This document shows positions 5,268 through 10,456 of a stretch of DNA of 64,000 nucleotides, in pieces (the stretch's first letter is position 1; every line of letters begins with the position of its first letter). Under the pieces are notes generated by a model. It did no database searches. It worked only from the letters and a program-made list of their open reading frames with translations, and was not told where the DNA came from. This DNA comes from Thermoproteota archaeon (lineage in GTDB: Archaea > Asgardarchaeota > Jordiarchaeia > Jordiarchaeales > Freyrarchaeaceae): the NCBI GenBank assembly GCA_029258835.1, contig JAPDJY010000035.1, positions 1 to 64,000 on the forward strand, given 5' to 3'. Made by a program: the position numbers and the translations under genes.

Positions 5268-5511
5268 AGAGCACACACAAACGAAGCAGCCCAAGCAAAC
5301 AGCCAAAAAACAACACCAGCCCCCGGAAAAGCAGCACACACCACACAAACAACACCAACCACCAGACACCACCCAGCACACACCACACAAACAACAAACA
5401 ACACAACCGCCAGGAAAACAGAACAAAACAGCAGACAAGACAAGAAACCCGCAGCAACCCAACAAGAAACAGCCAAAACCCACCCCAAACCACAGCCAGC
5501 AACACCCGACC
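5268..5511. repeat. low-complexity C/A-rich tract (no T on + strand)
   Basis: 244 nt without a T; non-periodic. Confidence 0.85.
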
Positions 5512-5758
5512 TCCACCTCCCGTGCGGCTACCGCCCCCATTCACCTATGGATAACTCAATAGTGCAAAGGCACCGCCTCAACCTCTAAGCTGTCCCCTCC
5601 CCGGATTTTAACATCCCCCGCCGCCACGCCTCCCACACCCTTATCACCATGCCTGTTTAAAGTTGCTACCCGACACAAGCCTCCTACCCCATGCGTCCGC
5701 TCTGGCGCATGTTGCTTCTCCCGGCTTCTAAGCTCTCCCAAAAAGGGATCGGAGACGT

Positions 5759-6008
5759 GAGGAAGCCACCGGGAAACCCAGCAACACAAAACCAGCCAGC
5801 AACAACACAAAAAACCACCCAGCAGAAAACAACCAACCACAACAACAGCAAAACCCAACACAAACAGCCCACTCCAGCCACAACAACACAAAACAGCAGA
5901 AAAACAGAAACAAAAAGCAAAACAGAACAGAAACAAAAACAGAAAAACAGAAAACAACCCACAAAACAAAGAAAAACCAGAACAAAGGAAAGAACGAGGA
6001 AGCCCAGA
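5759..6008. repeat. low-complexity C/A-rich tract
   Basis: single T (5873) in 250 nt, immediately downstream of the 16S gene. Confidence 0.85.
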
Positions 6009-6047
6009 TCCAAGAAACCCAAACCCAGACCGCACAGCCCAAACCCT
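6007..6047 (-). other. 3' arm of 16S pre-rRNA processing stem (bulge-helix-bulge)
   Basis: Pairs with 7592-7632: 20 bp and 14 bp helices around a 3-4-3 BHB. Confidence 0.9.
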
Positions 6048-6052
6048 GCGGT

Positions 6053-7796: not shown

Positions 7797-7800
7797 TTGT

Positions 7801-8140
7801 TGGGTTCTGTCGGCTGCTGGCTGGGTGGGGGTTGTTGGGTTTTTTGTTGGGGCTTGACGGTTTGATGATGGTGTGTTGCTTTTCTTGCTGGGTTTTCTCG
7901 CTTGTTTTGGTTCTGGGGGTTTTGGCTGGTGATTTTGGGTTGGGGGTGGGTGGCTGTTTAGCCGTGTCTTGCTGTTTTTTTGCTTTTTGGTGGTTGTGCT
8001 TTGGGTTTTATTGCTGTGTGGTTTGTTTTCCTTGTGGGGTTGGGGTGTTTGCTGCTGGGGTTTTTATTGTTTGCTATTTTTCTTGTTTGTTGTGGGGGTT
8101 GTTTGGGTGGTTTTTTTGGGGGGTGTTGTGTGGGTTGGCG
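7801..8140. repeat. low-complexity G/T-rich tract
   Basis: About 8 A in 340 nt on + strand; compositional mirror image of the tracts left of the 16S gene. Confidence 0.85.
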
Positions 8141-8982
8141 TTGTACTTGTGGAGGTATTTTCTTTTTATTAGTTGGTAGGTTGCGTATAGGGTGGCTATT
8201 ATCGCTGCGGCTATGGTGAAGAAGATGGTGTAGGGGTTGCTTGTGAGGGGGTTGTTTGCGAGGAGGGTGTAGAGGGTGTATTGGGTCGCTGTGTCCTGTG
8301 CGGTGTAGATTAGGGTTCTTAGTATTTGGGGGATTAGTACGAGGTTTTGGTATATTGTTTTTCCGAGGTATGCGTACATTAGGGCTCTTGGGAAGGCGCC
8401 GACTGCTGTTGCGGCTATGAAGGGTTTGAAGCCGATTTTTGTTAGTCCTGCTCCGTAGGATACTGCGTCGAAGGGTATTGGGGGTGTTAGCCGGGTGACT
8501 AGGACCGCTATGGCGCCCCATTTTTCCAGCCAGTTGTCTGCGATGAGGATGGCGTCGCCTATCGTTACGAGGAGGACTCGCTCTATTCTGCTTACCTTCC
8601 CGGTGCTTACCTTCCCGGTGTTTGGGTTTTCTTCATGGGGGGTTTGCGCGACCCTTTGCTCCCACCTTGCTATTAGCGGGCGGCCTATTGTCCTTGCAAT
8701 GAAGAATCCGGCTGTTGCTCCGGATATTTCTCCTATTCCGCCGATTGTGGCTGTGGCCAGCATGGCGTAGTCGTATCCGTATAGCATGTTTAGGGGCCAG
8801 TAGATGTAGCTGTAGGCTATTCCTCCGAACATTAGGATTAGCTCGCTTGGGATTACTGCTATTATCGCCTGGATTATCATTGCCGCGTAGAAGCCTAGGA
8901 AGCCGTACTGGATTATCCACCAGAGGACTGTCATGAATAGTCCTTGGAGCCTGCCTTCTAGGTTGATAAGGAGGGGGAGCAT
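8074..8982 (-). CDS. DedA/TVP38/TMEM64 (VTT domain) membrane protein
   Basis: IPSELILMFGG, GATAGFFIAR and RLTPPIPFDAVSYGAGLT motifs. Confidence 0.9.
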   Translation of the reverse strand: MLPLLINLEGRLQGLFMTVLWWIIQYGFLGFYAAMIIQAIIAVIPSELILMFGGIAYSYIYWPLNMLYGYDYAMLATATIGGIGEISGATAGFFIARTIGRPLIARWEQRVAQTPHEENPNTGKVSTGKVSRIERVLLVTIGDAILIADNWLEKWGAIAVLVTRLTPPIPFDAVSYGAGLTKIGFKPFIAATAVGAFPRALMYAYLGKTIYQNLVLIPQILRTLIYTAQDTATQYTLYTLLANNPLTSNPYTIFFTIAAAIIATLYATYQLIKRKYLHKYNANPHNTPQKNHPNNPHNKQEK

Positions 8983-9259
8983 TGTTTAGCCTCCGTGACA
9001 TTCCACTTTTTTCAGGGTTGAACCTTATATTGGTTTTGATGTATGCTTCGCTTGCGGCTGATGCGTGGGCGAGGCGGCTAGCGGGGCGTGTTACGGTTGG
9101 GGTGTGTTACTGTTGATTGCTGGTGTTTGGGTTCTTCTCGCTGTTTTCAGGCTTTCCGGGCGTTTACGTTTAGGGTTGGTTCTGTGTTGCACGTGGGGGC
9201 GGGGTTTAGGTGGGTTGTTTTGGCGGTTTGGTGTTGGCTTCATTAGGGGTGTGTCGCTG

Positions 9260-10456
9260 TCATGCCGTGGGGGCGGCGCTCTTTTCAGGGTTTGCTAGGG
9301 TGAGCAGTGCTAGGGCGAGTTTTACCAGTATTTTCGGGTTTGCTATTAGCTTCTTGATGGCGGCCGACTCGAAGTCCATGTCGCCGTAGGCTTCCATTGT
9401 TTCGGTGCCTCCATGCTCGATGAGGGCTTTGAAAAGCGAGTCTAGGGCGTGATCGCTTAGACGGTTTAGTACCCGGCGGGCCAGCTTCATGTAGGAGAAC
9501 TCCTTCCCCAAGATTTTTTCCCATCTTTGCTGGTACCGCTTCAGGAAACCGCTTGAGAAGCGTTCTTCCTGGAGTGCTTCGGATGCCACTTGGCCTGCTA
9601 TCCTCGAGCAGATCCCTCCGGTAACCACGCCTCCCCCCGTGGTAGGTTTAACTTGTCCTGCTGCGTCGCCCACGGCCATGAAGCGGTCCGTGAACGTCCT
9701 TTTAACCGGGCCATTAGTGAGGACCACACCGGCCACTGTACGGGAGACCTTTGCCCTTGGAAAACGCGTGCTTAAGAACTTTGCCAGACGTTTCCGGGGG
9801 TGAGAGCGGGCGGCGAGCCCAACCCTTGCTCCTTCATCCGTCGGGATCACCCATGCGAAGAAGCCGGGTGCCAGTCTGCCGCCGAAGTGTAGCTCGACGA
9901 AGTCGGGGTCTACGTCTACCCCGCGTACTTCGAACTGGACGGCGGGGAGCCGGCCTCTGAGGGGGGGCAGCCCTGCGATCTTGGCGAGGCGAGCCCTGCA
10001 GCCTTCAGCGTCTATTAGCAGTTTGCATTTCTCTTCGCCTCCGCCTTTAACGTGGACGTGCACGCCATCCAAGCTCCTCACGAAGGAGGTAACCTTCCTT
10101 TTAAGGGTGAGGTGTGCCCCTGCGCTTTGAGCGAGGGATGCAAGCCACCGGTCAAACATCCGCCTGTCTATGACTAGTGCCTGCACGCTTCTCCGGGACA
10201 CGGAGAATGACACGCCTGAAGGGGAGTAGAAGCGGGCACCGTAAACCCTGTTTAGGACGCATTCCTCCGGTACTCTGAGGCCGAGGCGCTTCAGGCCTGT
10301 AACGCTCACTAGGCCTGCACAATGGTCTGGTTCACCTACTTTCCCGTGTTCCTCTAGGACGATGACGTTTAACCCTCTGATGGATGATTCGAGAGCTGCA
10401 AGGGATCCGGCTGGGCCGCAGCCGACGACTGCGACGTCCCAGTTCAACGCTTCCAC
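9260..10456 (-). CDS. geranylgeranyl reductase family flavoprotein (DGGGPL reductase-like)
   Basis: DVAVVGCGPAG, IDRRMFD, PGFFAWVIP, VGDAAGQVKPTTGGG. Confidence 0.92.
   Translation of the reverse strand: MEALNWDVAVVGCGPAGSLAALESSIRGLNVIVLEEHGKVGEPDHCAGLVSVTGLKRLGLRVPEECVLNRVYGARFYSPSGVSFSVSRRSVQALVIDRRMFDRWLASLAQSAGAHLTLKRKVTSFVRSLDGVHVHVKGGGEEKCKLLIDAEGCRARLAKIAGLPPLRGRLPAVQFEVRGVDVDPDFVELHFGGRLAPGFFAWVIPTDEGARVGLAARSHPRKRLAKFLSTRFPRAKVSRTVAGVVLTNGPVKRTFTDRFMAVGDAAGQVKPTTGGGVVTGGICSRIAGQVASEALQEERFSSGFLKRYQQRWEKILGKEFSYMKLARRVLNRLSDHALDSLFKALIEHGGTETMEAYGDMDFESAAIKKLIANPKILVKLALALLTLANPEKSAAPTA

Follow-up and report, generated by a model that had tools for sequence, protein, structure and literature searches.

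What has removed A and C from the outward-facing strand on both sides of a lone 16S rRNA gene, and does replication start there? The gene (6053-7548, minus strand) lies in the window analyzed here, the first 64,000 nucleotides of contig JAPDJY010000035.1 (C3 below) in the Jordiarchaeales assembly GCA_029258835.1, an Asgard archaeal genome of 2.72 Mb in 91 contigs (G000 below). Its aspartyl-tRNA synthetase (AspRS) is 79-80% identical to those of the Jordarchaeales genomes QC4, JZ-1, and LHC_1308, and the stretch occurs in marine, sediment, and hydrothermal-vent metagenome runs. A first-pass annotation proposed that replication, or long-lived strand opening, starts at this gene. Comparison with a sister genus (G001) and a complete genome from another family (G006) gives a different answer. 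The chromosome is not mainly copied from 16S, because its long-range skew flips only at a Cdc6 origin, and the local footprint is not special to 16S, the flanks of which are among the strongest of dozens. A single 16S copy was found in G000, and the 23S gene lies unlinked on contig C14.

The features of the locus are as follows.

5268..5511, minus strand: outer tract downstream of 16S, without A on its outward (minus) strand for 244 nucleotides
5512..5758, no strand assigned: island of weaker bias separating the two left tracts, ordinary in composition, 247 nucleotides, single copy
5759..6006, minus strand: inner downstream tract on the 3' trailer side of 16S, with one T on the plus strand in 250 nucleotides
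6007..6047, minus strand: 3' arm of the stem in which pre-16S RNA is processed, with 88% complementarity to the other arm (7592-7632)
6053..7548, minus strand: stand-alone 16S rRNA gene, holding the switch centre within it or at its edges
7549..7770, minus strand: structured 5' leader (folding z -3.4), containing the 5' stem arm 7592-7632
7780..7797, minus strand: candidate promoter resembling a TFB-recognition element (BRE) and TATA box, picked by eye
7801..8140, plus strand: upstream tract, the outward (plus) strand with 8 A in 340 nucleotides, overlapping the tail of the DedA gene
9100..9250, plus strand: intergenic G/T tract, from its base count

On the plus strand, 5268-5511 contains A118 C97 G29 T0 by exact count, 5759-6008 a single T, 7801-8140 8 A among 340 letters, and 9100-9250 9 A among 151. 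Against intergenic composition, the binomial P values in this order are 1e-34, 1e-33, 1e-35, and 1e-11, and nowhere in the genome is a stretch without T or without A longer than the 244 nucleotides of 5268-5511. The counts first given for all four tracts were thus exact, but the left tracts carry 12-13% G and are not strictly C/A-only as had been stated. The outward strand is depleted of A and C on both sides, as claimed. Two fits place the switch centre at 6160 and 7343, within or at the edges of the 16S unit.

Part of this symmetry has a simple origin. A long inverted repeat with 41-nucleotide arms encloses 16S, and the innermost 41 nucleotides on each side are mirror images because they pair in the pre-16S processing stem. 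This accounts for only the innermost ~40 nucleotides per side, and the tracts reach far beyond, to positions upstream of the promoter-like element. The upstream polarity is already present in the 5' leader, despite its being transcribed. By eye, a similar promoter-like element precedes 16S in two relatives and 23S in G000; a sigma-70 promoter scan of the locus was set aside because that model is unsuited to archaea. The island at 5512-5758 has no homologue in 10 relatives and no Rfam match at the gathering threshold; a short hairpin lies within it at 5690-5711. Strong tracts upstream of 16S are likewise seen in two other Asgard families (f4 and f12) and are lacking in the three genomes of a third (f3), a patchy distribution across Asgard archaea.

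G000 has a canonical chromosomal origin (oriC) at C1:157100-158950, where five boxes resembling the origin recognition box (ORB) lie upstream of a cdc6 gene (C1:155996-157081). Two of these, at 158760 and 158903, are inverted around an AT-rich spacer. The same local compositional footprint as at 16S is centred on this origin, at 158848 between the inverted boxes in one fit and at 158280, still in the ORB cluster, in another. Likewise, in G001 the oriC centre at 942341 falls between ORBs at 942269 and 942404. The footprint at oriC is broader than at other centres, with a T-A skew of 0.25-0.54 at 3-5 kb. By contrast, 16S lacks an ORB and a cdc6 neighbour, and the skew does not flip there over long range. 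Full ORBs in G000 are confined to C1 157-159 kb, none of its three cdc6 genes (C1:155996, C1:75878, and C14:17994) is near 16S, and the window holds two one-mismatch mini-ORB matches where 2.7 are expected. It was thus correctly noted that no Cdc6/ORB origin is visible here. The G000 origin adjoins a gene resembling the PolD small subunit, and in G000 and G001 alike the origin region contains a small gene.

Replichore GC skew, measured at 4-fold sites with centres masked, separates oriC from 16S. In G001, the 900 kb analyzed (C1 200-1100 kb) have values of +0.09 to +0.19 to the left of oriC and of -0.07 to -0.18 to its right; samples taken along all of G006 mostly agree with this flip, and in G000 the skew left of oriC is +0.16 +/- 0.01. 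The leading strand is therefore C-rich in this lineage, the inverse of the bacterial rule. An inverted third-position skew has been described at an origin in Haloferax volcanii (PMC12999951). Since it is at a Cdc6/ORB origin that the skew flips, and the leading strand is C-rich, the terminus set by the bacterial rule in a published Freyarchaeia genome (PMC11291895) may be the real origin. For the same reason, the polarity argument drawn from bacteria, by which forks leaving an origin would give the polarity seen at 16S, fails in this lineage. T-A replichore skew in G001 C1 is visible only far from the origin, and GC content there has its minimum near oriC (0.42-0.46, against ~0.50 far away); G000 contigs span 43-58% GC, and the oriC contig is among the lowest.

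At 16S of G000, the left flank on the contig is only 6 kb. On the right, GC skew is +0.107 +/- 0.030 over 12-47 kb and +0.098 +/- 0.016 to the contig end. An origin at 16S would give a C-rich plus strand on this side; the strand is G-rich, the skew expected of forks moving towards 16S. There is no skew flip across 16S in G001 (-0.10, -0.09) or G006 (-0.09, +0.01), and no skew step at nine secondary centres (0.12 versus 0.14). The skew computed at 4-fold and intergenic sites thus shows the predicted symmetric switch at 16S locally, but not on the scale of a replichore, and the proposal that replication of the chromosome starts at 16S is not supported, given a canonical origin at C1 ~158.8 kb where the skew does flip.

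The footprint thus adds to the skew of a fork that passes through. Over 70 centres, GC skew differs between the fork-entering and fork-leaving sides by 0.25 (95% interval 0.16-0.34) within 1 kb and by 0.24 (0.19-0.28) at 4-8 kb, and the local T-A skew scarcely differs between the two sides (0.58 and 0.51, respectively). If the effects add linearly, lasting local initiation occurs in at most about a third of rounds.

We scanned for switches with an antisymmetric filter applied to intergenic letters and to 4-fold sites corrected for gene orientation. There are 68 two-sided switches of the 16S polarity in G000, against 0-1 in permutations, and 28 weaker ones of opposite sign with the same filter. 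Outward-strand 4-fold composition at the centres is about A.10 C.13 G.34 T.43; the centres were chosen by the statistic that also measures amplitude, so that amplitude is inflated. The footprint extends ~2-4 kb per side, falls to half by ~2 kb and vanishes by 4-6 kb, is alike for genes facing either way, and leaves GC content unchanged. Its profile matches in all three genomes. G006 is probably the complete wetland-soil Freyarchaeia genome of PMC11291895, and heat is therefore probably not required for the footprint.

Two further centres lie in the window, and tracts are found at repeat arrays elsewhere in G000.

50642..53668, no strand assigned: second centre, near 52273, between NDK and TIP49/RuvBL genes
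38368..40754, no strand assigned: third, weaker centre, near 39411, from the switch scan
C16:51075, C48, C59, C49:3400-6000, and C2:155674, outside the window: tracts at CRISPR-like arrays

As anchors free of this selection effect, 41 stable-RNA genes of the three genomes were chosen in advance. Outward bias was found upstream of 31 and downstream of 34, with means of 0.11 and 0.13. The footprint at 23S is much weaker than that at 16S and the ribosomal-protein superoperon has almost none, which speaks against the view that the most highly transcribed locus is what matters. Centres also flank CRISPR arrays and lie at tRNAs or inside some genes. The genes at or holding centres include what we take, from their sequences, to be EF-1alpha, EF-2, CDC48, CdhA, RpoA', Alba, and FBPase. 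The tracts at the CRISPR-like arrays (11-30 copies) are among the strongest and stand on both sides wherever both flanks are assembled. In two families, the EF-2 centre has a similar offset from the gene start, 296 nucleotides in G000 (C7:19661) and 282 in G006 (near 1737600); no motif was identified at this internal centre. With standard tools recovering only 13-23 tRNAs from G000, some unexplained centres may hide multi-intron tRNAs. Upstream of 16S in G006, a tRNA gene with several introns was seen by eye.

We consider the footprint to be a local, bilateral mutational trace of short outward strand opening and DNA synthesis at sites where the duplex is opened, a reading to which we assign a probability of roughly one-half (0.52). 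The duplex would be opened repeatedly at the centres, by an origin unwinding element, by RNA-DNA hybrids at untranslated RNA genes, or by breaks or nicks, and a helicase or polymerase would then run outward on both strands for a few kilobases. At oriC, this outward synthesis would mature into full replication. At 16S and the other sites it would stay short, as abortive initiation, restart, or repair (nick translation or break repair). The rDNA-origin idea would thus survive only in this weak form of short or abortive synthesis and not as a productive origin. Two causes could give the outward strand its A->G and C->T changes: deamination of the strand once displaced, or uncorrected G-T wobble errors made during its new synthesis. 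The latter option would also explain the G-rich lagging (Okazaki) strand seen chromosome-wide. Break repair had earlier been dismissed on grounds of polarity; that argument holds only for deamination of single-stranded DNA, whereas polymerase errors on a new strand would give the observed polarity.

Both chemistries would fit. Between strains, 51 of 58 substitutions (88%) are transitions. G/A rises slightly more than T/C and the dependence on neighbouring bases is nearly flat, a context that does not separate deamination from polymerase error. At the 16S flanks, A is nearly eliminated and C persists (A1 and C13 of 151 4-fold sites in the DedA gene). NucS is present, two to three PolB matches were found, and the only MutS_V match is weak. 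For polarizing the strain pair, the nearest candidate outgroups, at 99% and 60% protein identity, are both unsuitable.

Several points weigh against this reading. All signals are those of equilibrium composition, and substitutions polarized from repeat copies near centres showed no asymmetry, in a comparison underpowered by too few sites. Genes for the scan came from a simple dicodon-model caller. Centre strength is only modestly conserved across orthologues (Spearman 0.35 between genera, and 0.24), and several tRNAs, RNase P RNA, and the upstream flank of 23S show little or no bias. The non-origin centres share no motif or ORB: an ORB weight matrix applied to 85 centres gave, outside true origins, three isolated moderate matches, with centres not above flanks, and a de novo word and dyad search gave T-runs and AT-rich words only. 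Finally, oriC is an imperfect control, as its flanking genes are divergently transcribed. A bolder version of the proposal, that in this Asgard order bidirectional replication starts at dozens of sites (rRNA, tRNA, CRISPR arrays, and some strong genes) independently of Cdc6 but with the start-up machinery of oriC, and mostly aborts as a short bubble, seems to us doubtful.

The closest rival explanation is bidirectional transcription from each centre, with the outward strand, as the non-template strand, either acquiring C->T and A->G changes or escaping repair. It is known that transcription-associated asymmetry produces a G+T excess on the non-template strand, and the downstream flank of 16S resembles this with the right polarity. 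Centres are enriched at stable-RNA genes and weakly enriched for T-runs and TATA-like words, and the oriC genes are divergent. The footprint is, however, equally strong upstream of 16S, flips there ahead of the promoter as first argued, ignores gene direction, and is centred on a genuine Cdc6/ORB origin. The coding-strand keto skew is only ~+0.03 genome-wide and +0.065 in the most conserved genes, and is near zero in the ribosomal-protein superoperon. As for scaling with expression, the ribosomal-protein operon and the upstream flank of 23S are weak, yet many centres coincide with genes of presumably high expression. Divergent, convergent, and tandem gaps are alike, with 2.7, 3.3, and 2.9% above z 4. 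Instead of following the non-template strand, the bias flips inside genes: within rpoA', cdhA, and four other genes it is the template strand that is G/T-rich in the 5' part, and the coding strands of these six change from A443 C311 G109 T127 before the internal centre to A84 C78 G200 T263 after it. We thus regard transcription alone as an unlikely cause. Still less likely is that 16S and the other centres act as productive origins without Cdc6, perhaps primed by R-loops, and fire in most cell cycles. Their local footprint is the same as that at oriC, and there are precedents in constitutive stable DNA replication (cSDR) of Escherichia coli (PMC7045392) and in origin-independent archaeal replication (cited in PMC12999951). 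Yet the replichore GC skew flips at oriC only, remains +0.10 right of the G000 16S, and shows no step at secondary centres, and additivity limits local initiation. The contigs available have a flat depth, which is uninformative about copy number.

We give a similarly low probability to zones of fork stalling or collision with mutagenic restart. These would fit centres at strongly transcribed units, and the local GC polarity relative to the replichore skew is that of converging forks, but one-sided arrival should mark one side, contrary to the near-equal T-A skew. The footprint is also found at oriC, and the G000 16S is co-directional with the inferred fork. Selection, whether for U-rich outward strands that serve near strong promoters as insulators or terminators or for removal of cryptic TATA boxes, would favour T, which is the most enriched base, and the T-runs found at centres. 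It is improbable, because the G/A ratio climbs no less than T/C and is little affected by neighbouring bases, because the bias decays smoothly through synonymous sites in genes of either orientation, and because there is a small shift even at amino-acid-changing sites (53% versus 48%). An assembly or sequencing artefact is very improbable. The tracts are of low complexity, and 5028-5341 is uncovered in the four metagenome runs compared, so that part of the left tract is backed by homology only. By contrast, the right tract is present in independent samples (contigs of runs X3 and X6 span 7386-11840) and in a 98.6% identical strain (its contig spans 8015-14430), 16S of G001 is flanked on both sides by matching tracts, the pattern recurs in other genera including a complete genome, and reading frames are intact.

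The reach of the footprint into coding DNA can be followed in the genes on both sides of 16S.

8074..8982, minus strand: DedA/VTT membrane protein gene, 4-fold sites on the plus strand A1 C13 G70 T67
9260..10456, minus strand: geranylgeranyl reductase-family (GGR) gene, with fading bias, residual +0.34
10948..12300, plus strand: TruD gene, with the tail of the footprint, residual +0.23
2106..4979, plus strand: gene for a TSP3-repeat surface protein of 957 amino acids, without net synonymous bias, residual -0.06

The AspRS gene, next after TruD, has a residual of 0.00, and the right-flank bias is zero by 12.4 kb. It had been reported that the bias enters synonymous sites on both flanks and fades with distance. 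This holds on the right; because the left gene is unbiased, the mirror symmetry into coding DNA is broken and one-sided at 16S. That gene has no reciprocal orthologue in the G001 DNA compared. It belongs to a GC-rich block (224-4979, 52-66%) that holds an ATPase-like fragment besides the surface protein gene. The block as a whole has no footprint and no reciprocal orthologues in the same G001 DNA, and it may therefore have arrived recently beside 16S.

Bias tracks nearness to 16S rather than gene identity. The coding strand of DedA in G000 has T1 G13 C70 A67 at 4-fold sites, whereas its orthologue in G001, 3 kb from 16S, is unbiased (T30 G56 C42 A16); the gene that does adjoin 16S in G001 has T at 5 of 189. 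The DedA-GGR pair lies upstream of 16S in G000 and downstream in G001 (C2:24752-26815), and the neighbourhood has therefore been rearranged between the genera. The end of the DedA/VTT protein (8074-8200) is a low-complexity N/P/H/K tail read through the biased tract, likely a case of mutation pressure shaping a protein sequence.

At human CpG islands, a substitution asymmetry with prominent A->G flips at promoter-like sites and has been interpreted as a trace left by bidirectional initiation (Polak and Arndt 2009, PMC2817419). The likeness lies in a flipping, initiation-linked asymmetry at promoter-like sites; the difference is that the human asymmetry is measured over flanks of up to 1 Mb and attributed to productive origins, whereas the archaeal footprint is strong, spans 2-4 kb, and leaves the fork skew unchanged. 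Human replication origins show central breaks and error-prone synthesis, with a different polymerase within ~2 kb (Murat et al. 2022, PMC9645720). These share a kilobase-scale mutagenic zone with the archaeal centres, and the model of new-strand errors resembles the 2-kb zone of polymerase delta. The human data are, however, polymorphisms at mapped eukaryotic origins, whereas the archaeal centres mostly lack an ORB and their firing is hypothetical. The E. coli oriK sites of cSDR, where replication is primed by R-loops (PMC7045392), and recombination-dependent initiation in archaea involve initiator-independent synthesis seeded by RNA-DNA hybrids or D-loops, and the archaeal centres may be seeded in the same way. 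These known systems differ in producing long forks, in mutants or under special conditions, and we found no such compositional footprint described for them. The deamination gradient of the vertebrate mitochondrial heavy strand also makes one strand extremely G/T-rich, into codons, with C the most depleted base. The 16S flanks match this richness and its reach into codons, but they lose A almost fully and keep C. We found no account of two-sided footprints on the kilobase scale in archaea in the literature searched, the coverage of which was incomplete. New in this analysis are an oriC control, the inversion of the replichore skew, and a test of additivity.

In conclusion, the footprint provides a map, drawn from sequence only, of a strand-asymmetric process in Asgard archaea that is tied to a real origin, and it names specific loci that are testable in cultured archaea. 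Two signals that are mixed in skew plots are separated here, a weak chromosome-wide skew and strong local footprints that mimic an origin. As the chromosome-wide skew is the inverse of that in bacteria, applying the bacterial rule in this group may exchange origin and terminus. The pressure rewrites codon usage within single genes, which affects inferences of codon bias, horizontal transfer, and phylogeny. If the centres are indeed abortive replication bubbles, they would constitute a pool of dormant, transcription-linked origins and a possible forerunner of the sequence-independent origins of eukaryotes.

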